Source of the DNA: Squalus acanthias | Lineage: Eukaryota | DNA: 64,000 nucleotides | NCBI GenBank assembly: GCA_030390025.1 | Contig: CM059427.1 | Coordinates: 186,496,001-186,560,000, forward strand | Direction: 5' to 3' | Shown here: positions 2,669 to 52,400 of the stretch, one piece after another | Layout of the letters: the number at the start of each line of letters is the position of its first letter | How positions within the stretch are numbered: position 1 is the stretch's first letter | The notes under the pieces: model-generated | Seen by the model: the letters and a program-made list of their open reading frames with translations, nothing else | The model's database searches: none | What the model was told of the DNA's origin: nothing | Program-made: the position numbers and the translations under genes

Positions 2669-3010
2669 ATTCATATGAGAAGAGTTACACACTTTATCGA
2701 TCAGGCACAGATCACAGTGAACTCGACCTGATTTGCTATAATGTTTATGCTCCTTTGAACACTGCTGCATGGACCTGGAGGTCACGTCATCTTCAAAATC
2801 AGGAGGAAGAAATAGCATCTGTTTCAAAATCTCAGCTCATCAATGTAAACAGGACCTACTTTGGGAGTCGACTGGTGCCCACAGAGACAAAGTTTAATGG
2901 CAAGAACTTCAGTGTGAGGATTGTCCCTGTGCTGTTTGAAGATGCAGGAGTTTACACATGTTCTCTGGAATCATATAAAAGGGTGACCATTAAACTAATC
3001 ACAGTTAAAG
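2669..3010 (+). CDS. Paralog A exon: V-type Ig domain (D3)
   Basis: Acceptor tatcgcag|AT, donor G|gtagg, 342 nt, phase 1-1. Encodes LDLICY..AAWTW..NFSVRI..EDAGVYTC, with canonical B-strand Cys, C-strand Trp and DxGxYxC. Confidence 0.93.
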
Positions 3011-6000
3011 GTAGGAGACAGAATGTTGTCGTTATTTTCAGTGATCAAGTCATTGTTTAAAATCTAAATGATTTTCTTGTTTACACAGTCACAGCTGAAC
3101 CATCTGATGCAGTGACTGAGGGAGACACCGTTACCCTGACCTGCTCTGTCTCTGATGTCACTGGATCAATGAGACTAGCTTGGATCAGTACTGATGGCAA
3201 AACTGTTGGAGAAAAAACATTGAATGGATTGAATGGGGAAGAGAAATCATTGAGACTGATTATTCCGAAAGCTGACAGAGGCAGAGGGAAATGGAAATGT
3301 GCTTTGTTTCATCAAAACAGTCCCCGGGTTTTAGTCCCGTACTATCTGGAGCCCAGTGGTAAGTGACACAGGGTTTGCTCTTTATACTTATAAACTTGAT
3401 AGAAAATTCTTATCACTTATTGTTCTTGTTGCCCGAAGTAGCCCCTCATTTAATTGTAGTGTAATTAGTAGCATTGATTTGATTTAATTTAATTTAAATT
3501 AATTAAAGTGTAAGTCATGGCAGCACAGCTCGGCCCCGTGGTATGCTCCTCCTGCACTATGTGGGAAATCAGGGACACTTCCTGTGTCCCTGACGACCAG
3601 GTGTCTGGGAAGTGTATCCAGCTGCAGCTACTGGCAGATCGCATTGTGGCGCTGGAGCTGCGAATGGATACATACTGGAGCATTCGCGATGCTGAGGACC
3701 GTCATGGATAGCACGTTTAATCAGTTGGTCACACCACAGGTAAAGGCTGCACAGGCAGGAAGGGAATGGGTGACCGCCAGGAAGAGTAGTAGGCACAGGC
3801 AGGTAGTTCAGGGGGTCCCCTGTGGCCATCCCCCTCTCAAACAGATATACCGCTTTGGATATTGTTGAGGGAGATGGCTTATCGGGGGAAGGCAGCAGCA
3901 GCCAACTTCCTGGCACCATGGGTGGTTCTGCTGCACAGGATGGGAGGAAAAAGAGCGGGAGAGCTATAATGATAGGGGATTCTATTGTAAGGGGAATAGA
4001 TAGGCGTTTCTGCGGCCGCAAACGAGACTCCAGGATGGTATGTTGCCTCACTGGTGCAAGGGTCAAGGATGTCTCGGAGCGGCTGCAGGGCATTCTGGAG
4101 AGAGAGGGTGAACAGCCAGTTGTCGTGGTGCATATAGGTACCAACGATATAGGTAAAAAACGGGATGAGGTCCAAAAAGCTGAATATAGGGAGTTAGGAG
4201 GTAAATTAAAAAATAGGACCTCAAAGGTAGTAATCTCTGACGTGCTAGTCAGAGTAGAAATAGAAGGATATTTCAGATAAATACGTGGCTAGAGAATGGT
4301 GCAAGGGGGAGGGATTCAAATTCCTGGGACATTGGAACCGGTTCTGGGGGAGGTGGGACCAGTACAAACTGGACGGTTTGCACCTGGGCAGGACCGGAAC
4401 TGATGTCCAAGGGGGAGTGTTTGCTAGTGCTGTTGGGGAGGGTTTAAACTAAAATGGCAGGGGGTTGGTAACCTGTGCAGGGAAACAGAGGAAAAGGGAA
4501 ACAAGGATAGAAGCAAAAGACAGGAAGGAGAAAAGCAAAAGTGGAAGGCAGAGAAATCAAGGGTGTAAATCAAACATGGCCACAGTAAACAATAATCCAA
4601 ACTTCAGGCTCAGAGAAACTCATCTTCTCTGCCTGTCTCAGCTGATCCTGGAAACATTGGAGCCTCATCACTCTCATTCTAACTGAGGGCTCGTGCATTG
4701 TGAGCGCAAGAGCAGGAAACTCGAGGCTCTGGGTGGCCTCCTGAAACAGGCTTTAGGCGTCTTGTACATGCAATTCTGGGTCCTTATGCCAACTGGAGGA
4801 CCCCGATTGAAATTGGTGTACAGATGGGCGGAGCTTATGCTGGGCCAGCTCCAGCTCACTGTACCAGGTTTTGAGTGGATGAACCACTGGTGTTTAACAG
4901 GACCGTTGGAGGCCGCTCAAGAAATGGCCAGAAAACCTTTTAACAGTTACATTTCTGTGGAGCCAGGCGGAGATGGAGTCCTTCTCCTGGCTCCACAATA
5001 ATACTGCGGCCTGGGTTCGACCTCCACACAAGCTCACAGGTTTGGCTCCCCAAAGGACCTACCTGTGGGCTGGTTCAGCATCGAAGCTGGCTGGAATTCA
5101 TCAGGCCCCCACTGGGACACAACAATTGGCGTCTGCGTATCGTCTGTTTCATTCTAATGAGGGCTGATGGTGAATTTCATCTGGCCCCAGGCCGGCAGAG
5201 ACCGGCGCTCAAAACAATCACTTCACCAACTTGATGCCCATTTTGGGCGCAAGTTCAATTTCTCAGACTTGGAACCTGCAGATTTAAAAGCAGAGGAATG
5301 AAAGGGGACCTTAAAGAGCTTTATAAGATAATGAATGGAACAGAAAATATTGGTCTGGAGGAAAATCTCTGGACTGGTATAAGAGGCAGTTGGAGACTGT
5401 GATGATGAGACTGTGAGATTACATCGAAGGATTAGCTGGAGGAACCGACTATCTTCTCTCATCCCTTGTCTTTATTTATCCTCATAATAATAAGGTTGAG
5501 TCCACGAGGGTGCTGCCAGAAAATGAAAAGCGAAGGTGTAGTGTTAGGAGATTTAAATCAGTCAGAAAATATTAAAAGGAGGAAAAAGCATCAGTGGTAC
5601 ATGGCTGAAATAAAGAACAGAGGGAAAAGAAACAAAAAGAAGCATCAGCTATACTAGCTTAAAAAACTCACAGGATTGAAGGAAGCAAAAACCAGTTAGA
5701 CCGTTAAACTCACTGTGAATGCAGCTCTATCACCAACGTTATTTGGGCCGGATTCTCACACAGGTCTTGTGATTCACTGAGCAGTGGGAATTCCTACAGA
5801 GTATCCGTGATCGGCCCCAGACAGCAATTCACCAGCTCAACAGCACCTGTCCACGCACTGAGTGTTAATAATAGGCTCAGCAATATTACAAGGCAAGGTT
5901 TCACACCGAGCAGCACAGTGCGTGGATCCTGCGTTAGCTCCCACACTAGAAACCCCGCCAGAGGAACTTGGGGTCGATGTGAACTATCGGGTGTCTGACC

Positions 6001-9000
6001 GGCGGAGCGGGAGGGCGATGGACGGCCGCCCGATGGTGCTGACGGCAGGCCCAGTCCATGTTGACGGACGGGCCTCATTAGCATCACGCCGGCAGGCCTT
6101 GGGCAGAAATCGATGGGCCGACCGCCTGACTCCACCCGGCCAGCGCTAGGCCCGGGAGAAGATTGCCGCGGCAACAGTGACTGCAGGAATGGGGGGAAGG
6201 GGGACTGAGCCATTCCTGGCCATTTTCCGGGACATTATTATCCTGATTCCACCAGCCGGGAGGCCTCAAAATTCAACCACTCACTCCCTGAACAGTGGGA
6301 TTATTGGTAATTGAATACAATAGTACATTGAGGCTTGCAAACCAGATATTCGAGAAGACAATTACATTGATATGGAGAGTAAACTAAAGACAAATGATTA
6401 GGGGATAGCATGGTAGATCACATTCAATGTTCTGTTTAATAGTTTAAAATTAGGTTTGATAATCTTGACCATGATCAATGCCATGGGAGATGACCCAGTC
6501 CATCATAATTATACTGGAAGTCTGTCTACTGATGAAATTGTCCATTTAGCCTCATCTAGTGTTAAAATATTATATTAATTAAGAATTTGAAATAAAATAT
6601 TAAATTAAATGTACCATAGATAAACATTACAACAGCACACAATACTTTCAAAAACATGCATGGTAGCACTGTTAAACATTAAGGGGGAGAAATTCAGTAT
6701 CGCCCCATTTGGGGCACAATTATCAGCCGGGCGCAAAGATTAGCGCCTGGCACTAATTATCGCCTCCTACTGCAAACTTCACTTTTATCGCCCCTGGAGG
6801 TGATTGGAGCGCTAAATCAGGCGCTTCACACCTGTCTTAAGGTGCAAAGGCCAAGGAGCGAGGCGCTACCTCAGAGCGCTGGCGAAGCTCATGTGATGTC
6901 AGTCAGCAATGGAACACACACACAATGGCGCCAGCCAGTTCTGAAAGGGGAGGGTTGATCTTGCTTTCCATCCACATCCTGCTCATTGCAGCCTTGAATC
7001 TCGGCCTGGAGAGACCTGTACATCAAATCTGTTGGAAAGAACAATGGAGAGTAACAGGGAAAGAGCTCAGAGTGCAGCCCCAACAGTCTCTTCTAAATCG
7101 ATACAAGGAAGGGCAAATCAAAATGAACCTGCAAAGTGCTGCTCAGTACCCAAAACTCCTTCACACAGCGTTGAATCTCTCCAGAAGTCTCTCTCTCTCT
7201 TTCTCAGAATGCGTGGTTCAAAAATGTCACCAACAATAAAAGGCAGGAAGCGGTCACCTTTAAACAGCACTCCCCCAGTCCCTTCCTGACTGCAAAACGC
7301 TCCCCTCAACCTGTTGTTGCTAGCGGAAGGTGGTAAGGCAGGGGGCGCCACTCAATATCCGCTCCGGGGCGCTACCGGGGCGTTGCGCACTCGACTGACG
7401 TCACGATCTGCCGGCGCAGGAGATCGTGGCGGAAGTGTTTAGCGCCGCCGCAAAATGTCTAGTTAATTTCGCGAGCGGCGCAAACATCACCGCGCCCGGG
7501 CGCTAGTTGCTTTGCACCCCATTAGCGTCCTCTTAAGGCGCTAATGGGAGGCGCAACCAACTGAATTTTTCCCCCTAATAGTTTCAACAAAATTGCACTT
7601 TGTCAAAATAGGTGTTTTTTAAGTGAATGCCAGTTGCAGATCTGTGGCTGTCTCACACCTTGATGGTTAATGTCTCTCCAGACAGCACAGCCGAGATTGG
7701 GAAATCGCCACCTGGGGAATCTCAGGTGTGAATCTGTATTCTGCCACTCTGGTCAGGACAACACTTTCACATCCAGTTTATGCCAGTTTAGAAAATGAAT
7801 GACCCAATTTTGAGTTTATTCACTCCCTTTTCATTCCCTCAGAGCTGCTCACTTTAATTCTAAACCATTGCACCCACAAGAATCTGTTGAAAATAGTCAA
7901 ATCCAGACATGTAAAATGTGACAAAAAGAACACAACGTGGACTTGGTCTTGATGGAAATATTTGGTTCTCTGGCTCCCAGTGTTTAAAGCAGAATGTTGT
8001 CACTTTCCACATCTTTTATAGAATGACTGGCAGGAGTATTTAAATATTAAACGAGATGGAGAGTGAAACTAAAATCTCAACTTTGTCCTTCACAGTGAGA
8101 CCACTTCCGGAGATTTGGATCATCACAGTTTTGGGCTACTTGTTGGTTAAACTGGGCGTTGCTGTTGGACTAATTTGCTGCTTGAAGAGGATGACCAGAG
8201 TAAGAATTTCTTTAAGCTTTCCAGTAAATCAGGAATAAGTGCCGAGCTGTCACTTGGCTCTGAGAAAACTGATGTTTGTTGAACAGATATTATGTGGTCA
8301 CAAACTGTATTTTAAAATTTCATTTAAATATTGTACATTGTACTGAATTTAAAGGAATCATCAGTTAAAGAAAGCAATTGTTCCAAATTTGCTGAAATCT
8401 TAGAGCTTTGAATATTTTTCCTGATTCAAACAGCAATAACTTCCCTGCTCCCACTTTCCATCAGGCTCTGAGGAAGGAATCAGGGCGATCTCGGAGGGCC
8501 ATACCTGATTATCAATGAATGGACAATGCTCAAACTAGGAGCCCAATCTTTTAATATTTTTCATTGATTATCACAAATATTCCTCTTGGAAATTAGTAAC
8601 TTGAAAGTTGTCAGAAACCAATATTTGAACAGTTAAAGCACAAACAGTAAAAATTACAATAAAAGGAAATTACTAATGTATTTGGTGACAATTAATGAGG
8701 GCGATCATTTTAATGTGTGCTGTTATTCTTGTTGCTGTGACCTGGTGGCGCTAGAGAGCTGCAGTAGTGTTGGGGCCTAGAAATTAATTTGTCGCTCTAT
8801 AAACCACTTCCTCTGTGGCAGGTTTGGTTCACCTGATTTACTAAAAGGCAAATCTCAGTCGATTCAACAGCCAAGTTTCTGTTTCGGAGAGCCCTGTCGT
8901 GTTTATGTTCGAGGAAGGAGTGTTTCAAGGCTGTGTGCTTCTGGGTGAAGCGAGGCGTTGTAGAATGGGAACTATTGGGGTGAGAGGCACAGAAATGTGG

Positions 9001-10173
9001 TAACTAGTGGAAAGTTTGAACTTACATGAAGGATGTGAGGTAATCTGTATTGTTCAGGATGTTTACAGAGAATTACATAGAATTTACAGCACAGAAACAG
9101 ACATTCGGCCCAGCAGGACGGTGTCGGTGTTTATGCTCCACACGAGCCTCCTCCCACCCTACTTCATCTCACCCTATCGACATATCCTTCTATTCCTTTC
9201 TCCCTCATGTACTTATCCAGCTTCCCCTTAAATGAATCTGTGCTATTCGCCTAAAACACTGCATATGGTTGTGAGTTCCAGCGAGGAAGGAATAGGGAAA
9301 TCTCTGAGGGCCAAACCTGATTATCAATGAATGAAATAAAAACAGAACATTAATGAACATTGCTCACACTAGGAGCCCAATATTCTAGTTTTAAAATTTT
9401 TCATTTAATTTACTATTGCAAATATTCCTCTTGGAAATTGGAAGTTAGTAACTTGATTTTCGTCAGAAACCAATATTATTTGAACAGATGTTTGAAAAAG
9501 CACAACCAGTAAAAATACAATAAACTGAACAGTACGACCTGTATTTAGTGAAAATTAATGATTATGTTAAACTTTACATCAGATCACAGCTCAGGGAGGT
9601 AATAAAAGAGACAGAATCAGTAGCTTTAGTAGGAGAGCATTGTTCTGTCAGAAGCAGAGTTGTCAGTTCAAGGAGGTAACTTTACTGGTGAGGTCAGTCA
9701 ACCACAGGGAGAACCTCTTCGAAATGTGGTCACACTATGGCCATGAACTTCGAGCTCAATGGTGTGACCTTATTTTACATTCATACATTCATTGTAGGAA
9801 ATATCTTCCGCAATATCTTCTATCAGTAACTGGACTTAGTTAATCATTTTAATCAGGTCTGTTCCTTCCAATTACTGAAGTCTTTAATTGTTGAAATTAT
9901 CTCATTAACACTGAGCCAGTGATGTGTGGGTCATGGTCTGTTCTGTTGCCCATTCTGTAAAATTACTCCTCTATTCGACTTCCTCTTTATCCATCACTTC
10001 CAGTCCAGTGTTTATTATTGAAGGATAAGCTCTTTATTTAAAGCACATTTCTTGCCTCTTGTCAGATATCGAACAGCGGGAATCCACACGATGTGACAGG
10101 AAATGAAACAGATGATTCACAAGAAGCCGTCGCATTACAGACCCTGAACTCTGATACTGATCTGAGATCATAG
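2669..10173 (+). CDS. Paralog A (3' part): CD4/LAG-3-like four-Ig-domain type I membrane receptor; exons D3, D4, TM, cytoplasmic tail (leader, D1, D2 lie upstream of the window)
   Basis: Phase-compatible GT-AG exons 2669-3010, 3089-3358 and 8096-8199, then 8465-8518 or 10066-10173. The spliced product is V-set Ig + C2-set Ig + hydrophobic TM + short tail. Intron sequence at 1-2660 is homologous to the D2-D3 intron of paralog B. Confidence 0.85.
3089..3358 (+). CDS. Paralog A exon: C2-type Ig domain (D4) with WxC motif
   Basis: Acceptor ttacacag|TC, donor G|gtaagt, 270 nt, 78-bp intron from D3. Encodes VTAEPSDAVTEGDTVTLTC..LAW..GKWKC. Confidence 0.93.
3517..4596 (+). mobile_element. CR1 LINE ORF1 fragment (Cys-motif/leucine zipper + SGNH esterase), 3' truncated
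   Basis: CSSCTMWE, IPLSNRYTAL, IGDSIVRG and VVHIGTND motifs, with frameshifts. Confidence 0.9.
5745..6280. mobile_element. GC-rich MITE-like element
   Basis: Starts gggccggattct and ends aaaattcaacc, resembling the Harbinger-type TIRs elsewhere in the window. Confidence 0.45.
6683..7575. mobile_element. PIF/Harbinger (Tourist-like) MITE, family 1
   Basis: TIRs gggggagaaattcagt / actgaatttttccccc, TSD TAA (6680-6682, 7576-7578). Related copies at 44603-45403 and 52394-52944. Confidence 0.9.
8096..8199 (+). CDS. Paralog A transmembrane exon (intramembrane Lys, juxtamembrane CC)
   Basis: Acceptor ccttcacag|TG in phase 1, matching the D4 donor; donor AGA|gtaaga in phase 0. Encodes VRPLPEIWIITVLGYLLVKLGVAVGLICCLKRMTR. 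Confidence 0.85.
8465..8518 (+). CDS. Candidate proximal terminal cytoplasmic exon of paralog A (ALRKESGRSRRAIPDYQ*)
   Basis: Polypyrimidine acceptor cccactttccatcag|GCT in phase 0, stop TGA at 8516-8518, AATAAA near 8659. Confidence 0.4.
   Translation, partial: ALRKESGRSRRAIPDYQ
8470..9560 (+). repeat. Dispersed direct duplication of ~230-280 bp (8470-8698 and 9283-9560)
   Basis: gaggaaggaat..gagggcca.acctgattatcaatgaatg..ctaggagcccaat..aaatattcctcttggaaatt..gtcagaaaccaatatt..aattaatga is present twice. Confidence 0.85.
9070..9280 (-). mobile_element. CR1-type LINE 3' fragment
   Basis: Reverse complement of a CR1 tail (acagcacagaaacagacattcggccc..acttatccagcttccccttaaatg). Confidence 0.7.
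10066..10173 (+). CDS. Candidate distal terminal cytoplasmic exon of paralog A (ISNSGNPHDVTGNETDDSQEAVALQTLNSDTDLRS*)
   Basis: Acceptor tttcttgcctcttgtcag|ATA in phase 0, 35 open codons of acidic/polar tail, AATAAA near 10846. Confidence 0.55.
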   Translation: MSNSGNPHDVTGNETDDSQEAVALQTLNSDTDLRS

Positions 10174-34355: not shown

Positions 34356-34443
34356 ATGAGGCTACGATTTTTCTGCAGCAAAATGCCAGCTGGTTTGATG
34401 TTCAGTTTCTTTGTGTTTCTACTTCCGTCTGTTTTCACACAAA
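34356..34443 (+). CDS. Paralog B signal peptide exon (MRLRFFCSKMPAGLMFSFFVFLLPSVFTQ)
   Basis: ATG at 34356 (second ATG 34383), hydrophobic core, donor A|gtaagt in phase 1 compatible with D1. An upstream acceptor tttcttacag at 34333 suggests a separate 5'UTR exon. Confidence 0.75.
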
Positions 34444-37573: not shown

Positions 37574-37914
37574 GAAACACAAATCATATGTATTTTTTGG
37601 ATGAGGGAGATGACATTCCATTAAAAGGACCGGACAATCCTGGGAATGGCCCTGTTGTCTGGGAATGGAAACCACACTCAGGGCAAGAAATCCAGCGACT
37701 GGTTACTTTTCACAAAGGGAGTTCGAGTCGGTGGACGCACAATGGAACAATCACATTGGAAACAAGGAGTTGTACAAAAAGGCATTGCAGGATGGTGGTT
37801 CCATTAATCTGAGAATTAGAAAACCCACATTTAAACTTGCGGGATCGTTCATCTTGACTCAAACACAGCCAAGTAATAAAAGGCTGAAACAGTACGAAAT
37901 ATTTGGGATCAAAG
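37574..37914 (+). pseudogene. Paralog B exon D1: cysteine-free V-like Ig domain with 1-nt deletion near 37735
   Basis: Acceptor ttctaacag|GA, donor G|gtgagt. The N-half (..IPLKGP..VVWEWKP..RLVTFHK..RW) and the C-half (AQW..SINLRIRKPTFKLAGSFIL..YEIFGIK) are in different frames (ORFs 37555 and 37665). Confidence 0.8.
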
Positions 37915-38163: not shown

Positions 38164-40346
38164 ATCCAGGAGCTAATAAACTGCAAGCGCAAGGCATTCC
38201 TGATCTGGAAACAGCAACACAACTCGAGAGCAAGAAAGCAGCTCTACAGACGCCTGAAGGCCGAGGTCCGACAAAAAACTCGCGACCTAAAGAACAGATG
38301 GTGGCTGGAGAAAGTGCAGGAGATCCAGCAGCTAGCCGACAACCACGACATGCGTGGATTCTTTAGCACAGTTAGACCGCCTACGGCCCAAGCACCCAAG
38401 GTCCTATCCCACTGCGGGCCAAGAACGGAGAGGGAGGCAGTCAGTGCCCGCTGGAAGGAGCACTTCGAAGATCTCTTAACCGAGACTCTGTCTTCGATGC
38501 GAGTGTCCTCAACTCCATCCCGCAGCATGCTACCCATCACCATCTCAGCACAACCCCAGCCCGGCATGAGGTTGAAAAGGCCATCCAACAACTGAAGATC
38601 AACAAGGCCTCAGGAGCAGATGGAATCCCTGCCGAGGTGCTAAAGCATGGCGGAGAAGCACTACTGGCGCGAATTCATGAACTCATTTCTCTTATCTGGA
38701 AGGAGGAGAGCATGCCAGGGGATCTCAGAGACGCCGTAATTGTGACCATCTTCAAGAAAGGTGACAAGTCCGATTGCGGTAATTACAGAGGAGTTTCCCT
38801 GCTGTCTGCCACAGGGAAAGTCATCGCAAGAATCCTCCTCAATCGCCTTCTCCCAGTGGCTGAAGAGCTCCTCCCAGAGTCGCAATACGGATTCCGCCAC
38901 TAAGGGGCACAATGGACATGATCTTCACTGCGCATCAATTACAAGAGAAATGCAGGGAACAGCACCAACCGCTGTACATGGCCTTCTTTGCCCTCACAAA
39001 GGCCTTTGACACTGTCAACTGTGAGGGATTATGGAGTGTCCTCCTCAAATTCGGCTTGCCCTCAAAAGTTTGTCACCAACCTCCGCCTGCTTCACGACGA
39101 CATGCAAGTCGTGATACTGACCAACGGTTCCACCACAGACCCAATTCATGTACGGACCAGGGTCAAGCAAGGCTGTGTCATTGCACAAACGCTCTTCTCG
39201 ATCTTCCTTGCAGCAATGCTCTATCTCACGCTCAGTAAGCTCCCCACTGGGGTGGAGCTAATTTACAGAACAAACAGGAAACTGTTCAAACTCTGTTGCC
39301 TCCAGTCCAGATCAAGGTCGTCCCTTCCTCTGTCGTCAAATTACAGTATGCAGACGACGCTTGCGTCTGCGCACACTCGGAGGTCGAACTCCAAACCATC
39401 GTTTACACCTTCACCGAAGCGTACGAGAGCATGGGCCTTACACTAAACATCCGTCAGACAAAGGTCCTCTACCAACCTGCCCCCGCCACACAGTACTGCT
39501 CCCCGATTATCAAAATCCATGACAAGGCCTTGGACAACGTGGACCACTTTCCATACCTCTGGAGCCTACTGTCAACAAGGGCAGACGTCGATGACGAAGT
39601 CCAACACCGCCTTCAGTGTGCCAGTGCAGCCTTCGGTCGCCTGAGGAAGAGAGTGTTTGAAGACCAGGACCTCAAACCCGGCACCAAGCTCATGGACTAC
39701 AGAGCAGTAGTAATACCCGCCCTCCTGTATGCCTCAGAGACATGGACCATGTAAAGCAGGCACCTCAAAGCACTGGAGAGGTACCACCAATGCTGCCTCC
39801 GCAAGATCCTGCAAATCCATTGGCAGGAGAGGCGCACCAACGTCAGTGTTCTCGCTCAGGCGAACATCCCCAGCATCGAAGCTTTGACCACGCTCGATCA
39901 GCTCCAATGGACGGGTCACATCGTCTGCATGCCCGATACGAGACTCCCAAAACAAGCGCTCTACTCGGAGCTCTGACACGGCAAGAGAGCCCCAGGTGGG
40001 CAGAGGAAACGCTTCACGGACACCCTCAAAGCCTCCTTGAAAAAGTGCAACATCCCCACCGACACCTGGGAATCCCTGGCACAAGACTGTACAAAGTGGA
40101 AGAAAAGCATCCGGGAAGGCGCTGAATACCTCGAGTCTCTTCGCCGGGAGCAAGCGGAAGCCAAGCGCAAACAGCAGAAGGAGCGCACGTCAACCCAAGC
40201 ACCCCACCCACCCACCCCTTCAACCACCGTCTGCCCCACCTGTGACAGAGACTGTAGGTCCCACATTGGACTCATCAGTTACCTGAGAACTCATTTTTAA
40301 CGTGGAAACAAGTCATGTTTGGTTCCGGGGGACTGCCTGAGAAGAA
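38164..40346 (+). mobile_element. RTE-clade LINE, 5'-truncated
   Basis: ARWKEHFEDLL, LPESQYGFR, VKQGCVIA, LQYADD, LLYASETWT and C-terminal CPTCDRDCRSHIGLISYLRTH; several frameshifts; possible TSD attatg. Confidence 0.93.
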
Positions 40347-41700: not shown

Positions 41701-41970
41701 TTGAGTCAAGTCCACAGAGGCCTTTGCTGGGCAGTGAAGTTACACTCAGCTGTACCATCTCCAAACTCTCAGATACAGTCAGTCTTCAATGGAAACAGAG
41801 AGACTCATCTCAGCCGAACAGGAGCAACACTGATCAGATCCGACTAAATAACACAGTCTATCTGATAGTCAAACATGTTGCAGTAGAGGATAAGGAGTTG
41901 TACGCGTGTGAAGTGCAGGAACATGGATCCATTTTTCTCACAGGAAAAGCTGATTTTTCTATGAACCAAT
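41701..41970 (+). CDS. Paralog B exon D2: C2-type Ig domain
   Basis: Acceptor tttttcacag|TT, donor T|gtaagt, 270 nt. Encodes VESSPQRPLLGSEVTLSC..LQW..VYLIV..EDKELYAC, with sequons NRS and NNT. Confidence 0.92.
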
Positions 41971-47148: not shown

Positions 47149-47487
47149 ATTTATATCAAGAGAGTTACACGCTTTATCGATCAGGCACAGATCACAATGA
47201 ACTCGACCTGATTTGCTATTATGCTTCTTCTTTCAACACTGCTGCATGGACCTGGAGGTCACGTCATCTTCAAAATCAGGAGAAAGCAATAGCATCTGCT
47301 TCGATATCTCAGCTCATCAATGTAGACAGGACCTACTTTGGGAGTCGACTGGTGCCCACAGTGGCAAAGTTTAATGGCAAGAACTTCAGTGTGAGGATTG
47401 TCCCTGTGCTGTTTGAAGATGCAGGAGTTTACACATGTTCTCTGGAATCATATAAATTTGTGACCATTAAACTAATCACAGTTAAAG
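47149..47487 (+). CDS. Paralog B exon D3: V-type Ig domain
   Basis: Acceptor tattgcag|AT, donor G|gtagg, 339 nt open; paralogous to 2669-3010. Confidence 0.93.
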
Positions 47488-47565
47488 GTAGGAGACAGAA
47501 TGCTGCCGTTGTTTTCAGTGATCAAGTTATTGTTTAAAATCTAAATGATTTTCTTGTTTACACAG

Positions 47566-47835
47566 TCACAGCTGAACCATCTGATGCCGTGACTGAGGGA
47601 GACACCGTTACCTTGACCTGCTCTGTCTCTGATGTCACTGAATCAATGAGACTTGTTTGGATCAATAGTGATGGCAAAACTGTTGGAGAAAAAACATTGA
47701 ATGGATGGAATAGGGAAGAGAAATCATTGAGACTGATTATTCAGAAAGCTGACAGAGGCAGAGGGAACTGGATATGTGCTTTGTTTTATCAAGACAGGCC
47801 CCGGGTTTTAGTCCCGTACTATCTGGAGCCCAGTG
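47566..47835 (+). CDS. Paralog B exon D4: C2-type Ig domain with WxC (GNWIC)
   Basis: Acceptor ttacacag|TC, donor G|gtaagt, 270 nt; paralogous to 3089-3358, with the same 78-bp upstream intron. Confidence 0.93.
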
Positions 47836-49498: not shown

Positions 49499-52400
49499 AA
49501 CATAGAAACATAGAAGATAGGAGCAGGAGTAGGCCATTCAGCCCCTTGAGCCTGCTCCGCTATTCAATGCGATCATAGCTGATCATCCAAATTCAGTACC
49601 CTGTCCTTGCTTTCTCCCCATATCCCTTGATCCCCTTAGCCTTAAGAAATATATCGAACTCCTTCTTGAATATATTTAATGAATTGGCCTCAACTGCCTT
49701 CTGTGGTAGAGAATTCCACAGGTTCACCACTCTCTGGGTGAAGAAATTCTTCCCCATCTCAGTCCTAAATGGCTTACCCCTTATCCTTAGACTGTGACCC
49801 CTGGTTCTGGACTCCCCGCCATCGGGAACATCCTTCCTGCATCTAGTCTGTCTAGTCCTGTTAGAATTTTATAAGTTTCAATGAGATCCCCTCTCATTCT
49901 TCTGAACTCTAGCGAATATAAAACTAATCGACCCAATCTCTCTTCATACGTCATTCCTGCCATCCCAGGTATCAGTCTGGTGAATCTTCGCTGCACTCCC
50001 TCCATTGTAAGAACATCCTTCTTCAGATAAGGCGACCAAAACTGCACACAATACTCAAGGTGTGGTCTCACCAAGGCCCTGTACAACTGCCGCAAGACAT
50101 CCTTGCTCCAGTACTCGAATCCTCTCGCTATGAAGGCCAACATACCATTTGCCTTCTTAACCGCCTGCTGCACCTGCATGCTTACCTTCAGCGACTGGTG
50201 CACAAGGACACCCAGGTCTCGTTGCACTTCCCCTTTTCCCAAGCTATTGCCGTTCAGATAATAATCTGCCTTCCTGTTTTTGCCACCAAAGTGGATAACC
50301 TCGCATTTATCCACATTATACTGCATCTGCCATGCATCTGCCCAATCACCCAACCTGTCCAAATCATACTGGAGTTTCTCTGCATCCTCCTCACAACACA
50401 CACGCCCACCCAGCTTTGTGTCATCTGCAAACTTGGAGATATTACATCTAGTTCTCTCGTCTGGATCAGTAATATATATTGTGAATAACTGGGGTCCTAG
50501 CACTGATCCCTGCGGTACTCCACGAGTCACTGCCTGCCACTCGGAAAATGACCCGTTTATTCCAACACTTTGCTTCCTGTCTGCCAACCAGTTTTCTATC
50601 CAAGTCAGTACCTTACCCCCAATCCCATGTGCTTTAATTTTGCACGCTAATCTCTTATGCAGGACCTTATCGAAAGCCTTCTGAAAGTCCAATTATACCA
50701 CATCCACTGGTTCTCCCTTATCTATTCTACCAGTTACATCCTCAAAAAATTCCAGTAGATTAGTCAAGCATGATTTACCTTTCGTAAATCCATGTTGACT
50801 TTGTCCGATCCTGTCACTGTTTTCCAAGTGCTCTGCTATTACATCTTTTATAATGGACTCTAGCATTTTCCCCACAACCGATGTCAGGCTTACCAGACTG
50901 TAATTCCCCATTTTCTCTCTACCACCTTTTTAAAATAGTGGCGTTATATTAGCTACCCTCCAATCCATGCGAACTGTTCCAGAGTCTATAGAATTTTGGA
51001 AGATGACCAGCAATGTATCAACTATTTCTCAGGCCACTTCCTTAAGTACCCTAGGATGTAGATTATCAGGCCCTGGGGATTTATCGGCCTTCAATCCCAT
51101 CAATTTCCCTAACACCATTTCCCTACAAATACTGATTTCATTCAGTTCCTCCCTCTCATTCGACCCTATGTTCCCCAACATCTCTGGGTGTTTATTTGTG
51201 TCCTCCTTTGTGAAGACAGAACCAAAGTATGTATTTAATTGGACTGCCATTTCTTTGCTCCCCATTATAAATTCCCCTGATTCTAACTGCAAGGGACCTA
51301 CGCTTGACTTCACCAATCTTTTTCTCTTCACATATCTATAGAAGCTTTTACAGTCAGTTTTTATTTTCCCTGCAAGCTTACTCTCATACTCTATTTTCTC
51401 CCTCTTAATTAATCCCTTTGTCCTCCTTTGCTGAATCCTAAACTGCTCCCAATCCTCAGGTTTGCTGCTTTTTCTGGCCAATTTATATGTGCTCTCCTTG
51501 GATCTTATGCTATCCCTAATTTCCCTTGTTAGCCACGGTTGAGTCACCTTTTTTGTTTTATTTTTATGCCAAACAGAGATGAACAAATTCTGTAGTTCAT
51601 CCATGCGATCTTTAAATGTTTGCCATTGCCTATCCACCGTCGACCCTTTAAGCAACATTCCCCAACACATCCTAGCCAACTCGTGCCACATACCATCATA
51701 TTTTCCTTTATTTAAATTCAGTACCCTAGTCTCGGAGTCAACCATTACTTCACTCTCCATCTTAATGAAGAATACTATCATATTATGATCGCTCCTCCCC
51801 AAGGGGCCTCGCACAACAAGATTGCTAATTAATCCTTTCTCATTACATAATACTCAGTCTAAGATGGCCTGATCTCTAGTTGATTCCTCGATATATTGGT
51901 CCACTAACCCATCCCATATACAGTCAAGGAATTCCTCTTCCACAGTATTGTTACTAATTTGGTTAGCCCAATCTATATGTAGATTAAAGTCACCCATGAT
52001 AACTGCAGTGCCCTTATTGCACGCATCTCTAATTTTCCATTTAATGCAATCCCCAACCTCATCATTACTGTTTGGGGGTCTGTATACAACTCCCACTAAC
52101 GTTTTCTGCCCCTTGGTATTTCTCAGCTCTACCCATACAGATTCCACATCATCAGAGCTAATATCCTTCCTTACTATTATGTTAATCTCCTCTTTAACCA
52201 GAAATACTACCCCACCTCCTTTTACTTTTTGCCTGTCCTTCCTGAATATTGAATACCCCTGGATGTTGAACTCCCAGCCTTGGTCACCCTGGAGCCATGT
52301 CTCCATAATCCCAATTATATCATACCATTTACATCTATTTGCGCAGCTAATTCATCCACCTTATTGTGAATGCTCCTCGCATTAAGACACAAATGTACCA

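Follow-up and report, generated by a model that had tools for sequence, protein, structure and literature searches.

A tandem array of predicted paired Ig receptors with a CD4/LAG-3-like ectodomain and variable D3 loops in Squalus acanthias

Genes of the locus and their array

The window analysed here is a stretch of 64,000 nucleotides from Squalus acanthias (assembly GCA_030390025.1, contig CM059427.1, positions 186,496,001 to 186,560,000); exon coordinates refer to it, and the features described lie on its forward strand. The focal exons (47149..47835) encode D3 and D4 of an eight-Ig receptor with two ITIMs, the gene for which is termed gene B. Its leader (signal peptide) exon (34356..34443) was located by tblastn with homologs and by exon boundaries, and comparison with homologs defined D1, a Cys-less V-type domain (37574..37914, 341 nt), and D2, a C2-type Ig domain (41701..41970). 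D3 (47149..47487) is a V-set Ig domain in which C23, W and C104 are present, with a V-set match (E 4.6e-5) that is under the curated cut-off; it includes a hypervariable, Tyr-rich BC (CDR1-like) loop (47217..47240) and a variable FG (CDR3-like) region (47442..47459). A 78-nt GT-AG intron (47488..47565), spliced out in a contig of run X1, separates D3 from D4 (47566..47835), a C2-type Ig domain with a WxC motif. The exons for D5-D8, a neutral transmembrane (TM) exon and the tail exons lie directly downstream of the window; the tail is multi-exon and its ITIMs are IHYGSI and VIYAQI. Splicing of D3 to D4 was observed in runs X1, X3 and X5 from one study, termed RNA-like here as a guess backed by splice junctions only, in which D4 is joined to a Lys TM exon (of the gene A type described below, in a contig of run X1), to a neutral TM exon or to D5.

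The second gene, gene A, which served as comparator, has D3 at 2669..3010, D4 at 3089..3358, a TM exon with an intramembrane lysine at 8096..8199 and, at 10066..10173, a short cytoplasmic exon that lacks tyrosine motifs and corresponds to the tails of the homologs P0044, P0045 and P0048. Gene A is a four-Ig gene of the predicted activating type. A conserved, locally duplicated segment follows the Lys TM exon (8466-8519 and 9283-9561), is present at 15 of 17 such loci, and could be an alternative short tail exon.

Searches of the same genome returned at least 43 D3-D4, at least 40 D1 and at least 40 D2 matches, nearly all on contig C3 at 186.4-189.5 Mb, where at least 32 (about 35) tandem genes of a V-C2-V-C2 elasmobranch family occupy 3 Mb in blocks of both orientations; D2-type exons on C3 number at least 32. 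Because the best 40 of 57-80 candidates were scored, these counts are lower bounds, skewed to well-preserved copies. Among the TM exons of the array 14 carry Lys, 3 have Lys replaced by Ile, 6 are degenerate and 16 are neutral. Similar ectodomains combined either with ITIM tails or with a charged TM residue, the arrangement that characterises paired receptors, are present, with the type of each D3 copy assigned by its nearest downstream TM exon and ITIMs read in gene B only.

Sequence comparison also points to ectodomain exchange between the predicted activating and inhibitory genes, a second property of paired receptors. D3 distances within types (0.098) are no smaller than those between types (0.093), the nearest D3 neighbour belongs to the other type in 10 of 23 copies, and D3 loops are common to both. 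Site incompatibility is 0.39, compared with 0.16-0.19 in simulations without exchange; in a permutation test on neighbours, recombination was of borderline significance (p 0.07).

Other features of the array concern individual copies. The Lys to Ile replacement in three activating-type TM exons (L045-L047) would abolish adaptor pairing. A divergent subfamily of D3-type exons (L030, L098-L101) is without both cysteines, its members lying near TM exons in which Gln replaces Lys (L048-L053) and several copies being broken; two other D3 copies (L024, L097) are both without the F-strand cysteine, with frames still open. Insertions break one D3 exon (L021) and one D1 exon (L092), and LINE-like retroelement remnants, identified by eye, fill introns (38200-40300, 49790-51853 and others). 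Identical D1 exons at separate sites (L070/L071, L078/L079) reflect recent segmental duplication or assembly duplication. An outlying, intact-looking copy (L010) is located on C26 at 26.27 Mb, about 4.4 Mb from an MHC class I-like exon cluster (C26, 30.7-38.4 Mb).

Divergence of the focal pair and selection across the family

The region of the focal exons (47149-47835) and that of their comparator in gene A (2669-3358) align at 92% over 922 nt. The first-pass annotation of this DNA had described the divergence as almost entirely amino-acid changing, and its counts are accurate: outside the loop D3 has 12 replaced residues and 2 purely synonymous codons, D4 has 12 replaced residues and 3 synonymous changes, and the BC loops differ by an indel (NVYAPL vs YASSF, the latter one codon shorter). 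What is not confirmed is that this exceeds chance. Since neutrality alone predicts nonsynonymous and synonymous changes at about 3:1, the observed 26 and 6, over about 444 and 144 sites, are unremarkable; dN/dS is 1.42-1.76 (kappa 1-3), not different from 1 (one-sided p 0.15-0.30), and it was dropped as evidence for selection. The intron has the 78-nt length that had been noted and, described there as nearly identical, is about as diverged (4/78, 5.1%) as the exons (32/588, 5.4%), the flanks being above both (8.5-12%). The AGG/TTT codon difference at 47457-47459, described as a three-base swap, is real and has intermediates among the paralogs, that position being ATG in 14 of 25 copies, TTT in 8, AGG in 2 and CTT in 1. 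The reported sequon difference (NRT/DRT, 47325-47327) is present too, with D in 19 of 25 copies and N in 6. The D4 distance of the pair is unusually high, at the 94th percentile among all pairs. Two compared copies cannot by themselves demonstrate selection; the pairwise dN/dS observation is ordinary, and it is the family with its D3 loop, not the pair ratio, that gives the locus its value. The first-pass annotation had overlooked that the two genes represent the inhibitory and activating types of one array and that D1 of gene B is frameshifted in this assembly.

Across the larger paralog sample the proposal of diversifying selection, which the first-pass annotation had placed on putative ligand-facing surfaces chasing candidate MHC or pathogen ligands, fared differently by domain, gaining support for D3, above all its BC loop, and none that is robust for D4. 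With 25 D3 copies, M2a is preferred to M1a (LRT 79; 23% of sites, omega 4.7). Because M1a/M2a read any fast site as selected, the fast site class was given its own synonymous rate, and under this stricter test the D3 signal persists (omega 2.7, LRT 12.3, p 4.5e-4); it was kept when five suspect copies were removed (omega 3.2). The site models were implemented in our own code (GY94/F3x4), an HKY tree supplying the branch lengths, which were scaled by a single factor. The codon sets left out four frameshifted D1 copies of 30 and two D1 duplicates, two D2 duplicates of 30, the D3-type copy with an insertion (L021), D7 of L029, D8 of L023 and the five divergent D3-type copies (L030, L098-L101). 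The strict D3 result depends on the BC loop, the alignment of which is ambiguous; without it the LRT is 1.7-3.6, which is not significant.

The fast D3 sites are concentrated in the N-terminus and in the BC and FG loops, with a posterior above 0.9 at 10 of 24 CDR-like codons compared with 7 of 93 others (Fisher p 1.7e-4). Over the whole of D3, piN is 0.085 and piS 0.052 (bootstrap P 0.015); the excess is found in the BC loop (0.34 vs 0.12), the FG region (0.22 vs 0.07) and the N-terminus (0.23 vs 0.08), of which the BC and FG regions were taken from the pair described in the first-pass annotation and the N-terminal region was picked post hoc. Intron pairwise diversity is 0.066. Tree-free allele counts, which are conservative, give ratios of 1.28 for whole D3 (p 0.12), 2.64 for BC (p 0.02) and 0.79 for FG. 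Among the 25 copies the BC loop takes 22 different sequences, with a Tyr content of 35% compared with 5% elsewhere, and D3 columns that are variable in the array also vary between species (Spearman 0.50, or 0.43 with BC removed). On this basis the D3 loops, above all BC, have likely been diversified by selection.

No comparable signal was retained for the other domains. In plain comparisons of M2a with M1a the LRT is 79 for D1, 44 for D2, 35 for D4, 13 for D7 and 0 for D8, but the signal in D1, D2 and D4 is gone with a fast synonymous class (D1 omega 1.33, p 0.10; D2 LRT 0.09; D4 LRT 0.19, p 0.66), and the D7 value, from the plain model only, was not accepted as proof of selection. In D1, from which both canonical Ig cysteines are absent in all copies and relatives (37574-37914; L057-L085), a C'C''-C''-D patch is the most variable of the family, with piN of 0.19 but also piS of 0.14; the last residues of D2 are variable as well.

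The most serious alternative, which we nevertheless consider unlikely, is that the array is indeed one of paired receptors but under relaxed constraint, its D3 loops being varied by TAT/AAT slippage and patchwork conversion from diverged copies, with no positive selection. The BC loop, on which the strict signal rests, is rich in TAT/AAT codons; the D3 framework (piN 0.043, piS 0.035), D2, D4 (0.037, 0.035) and D7 (0.033, 0.032) all have piN close to piS, which in the framework means that recent constraint has been weak; and the fast D1 patch, as above, has high piS too. Against this, 22 of 26 variant bases in ungapped BC columns fall at codon positions 1-2 (p 0.036), D3 length variants (110-117 codons) are all in frame, and pure synonymous alleles are no more frequent at selected D3 codons (0.25 per codon) than elsewhere (0.27). 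Furthermore, under the same regime there is almost no variation in the homologous loop of D7 (piN 0.046), and in neutral simulations with block-wise exchange only 1 of 51 reached an LRT of 12.3 with omega above 1, a test that the D3 signal passes narrowly.

A reading of gene B as a pseudogene or null allele that differs from gene A through neutral decay is very unlikely. In this assembly its D1 exon has 341 nt, compared with 342 in 26 of 30 copies, i.e. a 1-nt frameshift near 37733, which together with the unexceptional dN/dS of the pair and the broken copies in the array might suggest decay. The missing base, however, falls within a run of G, where either an assembly error or a private allele could account for it; contigs from four runs at gene B D1 have the extra base, though these may be from paralogs, the closest combining features of gene B and of paralog L057. 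D2-D8, the TM exon and the tail all have open frames, in run X5 a D2 end specific to gene B is spliced to D3 and a contig of 96 nt matches the gene B loop exactly, and most differences within the pair are states common to other paralogs. Point nonsense changes in the intact sets number 0, compared with about 21 expected, in a count biased to the best-matching copies; some copies are broken, but the family overall is therefore not in decay.

Relatives, fold and comparison with known systems

Every one of the 70 matches of a D3 search, and of 120 among the matches listed for a family profile, comes from a cartilaginous fish and has no functional family name; a nurse shark homolog (AGQ17915.1) is labelled 'obscurin-like'. 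Homolog tails have ITIMs or a TM lysine. The profile search also reached full-length uncharacterised relatives, the 20 looked up being from Heptranchias, chimaera, bichir, sturgeons, bowfin, eels, tarpon, bonefish, pike, huchen, mormyrid, characin, knifefish and carps. The shark profile and the bony-fish profile can be aligned over their full length (E 3e-87), and a GYLxxK TM motif is present in bowfin and sturgeon as well. In some single proteins, i.e. P0133 (Anguilla rostrata, 2139 aa) and shark P0001-P0003, the four-domain unit is repeated at least three times.

An AlphaFold model of homolog P0048 (pLDDT 77) gave LAG-3/CD4 at all of Foldseek ranks 1-8, with 12-18% identity to those structures. 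Structure rows of the Atlas included g6f-like and CD4 at a TM score of about 0.4, below the bar for naming; a single-domain PDB search gave generic Ig matches only, and an Atlas feature search generic Ig clusters. The array further resembles CD4/LAG-3, which occur in jawed vertebrates including sharks, in its V-C2-V-C2 ectodomain, one exon per domain and WxC in D4, as these are described in PMC10768021, and continuous G-A strands are predicted across V-C2. By contrast, CD4 and LAG-3 are single genes, and the array comprises at least 32 copies, with four- and eight-domain forms and a Cys-less D1, and D2 has a YxC-type motif, WxC being found in 0 of 30 copies. Whereas the tails of CD4 and LAG-3 bear Cx(C/H) or (F/Y)xxL(D/E), those of the array have classical ITIMs or accompany a TM lysine: gene A and gene B both lack the LCK-binding Cx(C/H) motif of the CD4 tail, and the multi-exon tail of gene B does not match the single-exon (F/Y)xxL(D/E) tail of LAG-3. 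Despite its domain order, D4 motif and fold matches, and a variable D1 patch covering the C''-D edge by which human CD4 contacts MHC class II (PMC10768021, section 3.6), the array is most improbable as a set of multiplied CD4/LAG-3-type T-cell co-receptors binding MHC class II, given these differences, the low identity and, according to section 3.2 of the same source, the presence in sharks of separate true CD4 and LAG-3 genes.

The DICPs of ray-finned fish and coelacanth are similarly a clustered multigene family of repeated two-domain units (bioRxiv 10.1101/2021.06.11.448072), and their domains are described there as having C23 and C104, most with extra cysteines. The array does not conform to this, D1 being without either canonical residue, D3 having the canonical pair only and extra cysteines being absent; the C23 plus C104 pattern in D1 and D2 is not matched. 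Nor is there a DICP name among the array homologs, and 0 of 50 MHC class I matches lie on the main array contig, C3, the outlying copy on C26 being about 4.4 Mb from a class I cluster. Like the array as predicted, DICPs include inhibitory and activating forms. Membership of CD4, LAG-3 or DICP was rejected on tails, the D2 WxC motif and cysteines.

Gene conversion has shaped the paired Ig receptors KIR, LILR, SIRP and Siglec. CEACAM genes resemble the array in combining common ectodomains with opposite signalling, as predicted for the array, and in having inverted blocks of genes, exchange of exons and nonsynonymous hot spots (PMC5112662). The array differs from all of these in its CD4-like rod and in the predicted position of the hot spots, which fall at the D2-D3 elbow and along the D1 C''-D edge and not on the N-terminal CC'FG face. 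Teleost G6F-like (an Atlas name) is among the nearest predicted structures, with a four-Ig CD4-related fold; it has an ITAM tail, judging by a reference title in PMC10768021, whereas no ITAM was found in the 70 array homologs scanned. No description of the family was found in the literature searched, coverage of which was thin on subscription journals. Fast-evolving loops are a familiar feature of paired receptors; a version on a CD4 scaffold was not found described in that literature.

Proposed recognition system

Taken together, the available evidence is that the array probably comprises at least 32 CD4/LAG-3-shaped paired inhibitory and activating immune receptors, in which membrane-distal loops of D3 have likely been selected to track changing ligands. 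Members with ITIMs would recruit SHP phosphatases and those with a TM lysine would pair with a DAP12-type adaptor, while gene conversion would keep the inhibitory and activating ectodomains alike. In the Ig topology, the N-terminus and the BC and FG loops of D3 presumably face D2, and the variable end of D3 together with that of D2 would form a putative binding site at the D2-D3 elbow. KIR likewise have an interdomain binding site. The D1 C''-D patch would form a second putative site. In Xenopus CEACAM pairs, conversion aligns the activating and inhibitory ectodomains, after which nonsynonymous changes gather at binding faces (PMC5112662), a pattern that the array resembles.

As to what drives the changes, the most likely candidate, held tentatively, is pathogen surface proteins that engage inhibitory members and against which activating look-alikes would act; polymorphic MHC comes second and is a more doubtful candidate. 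To our knowledge, no polymorphic paired receptors on a par with KIR, LILR or NITR have been established in cartilaginous fish, and NITR homologs are lacking there according to work cited in bioRxiv 10.1101/2021.06.11.448072. It may be, though we regard this as speculative and rather improbable, that in cartilaginous fish this unnamed family takes the place of KIR/LILR on a CD4 scaffold, as an ancient jawed-vertebrate paired-receptor system, with relatives from chimaera and bichir to eel, pike and carps, that reads polymorphic MHC via the antibody-like Tyr-rich loop at the D2-D3 elbow. If so, CD4-scaffold paired receptors would give sharks germline 'missing-self' recognition. With its opposite predicted tails and mappable loops, the array of about 35 genes provides concrete candidates for tests against shark MHC or microbes, and in the proposed reading it would represent the CD4 scaffold reused for innate recognition.
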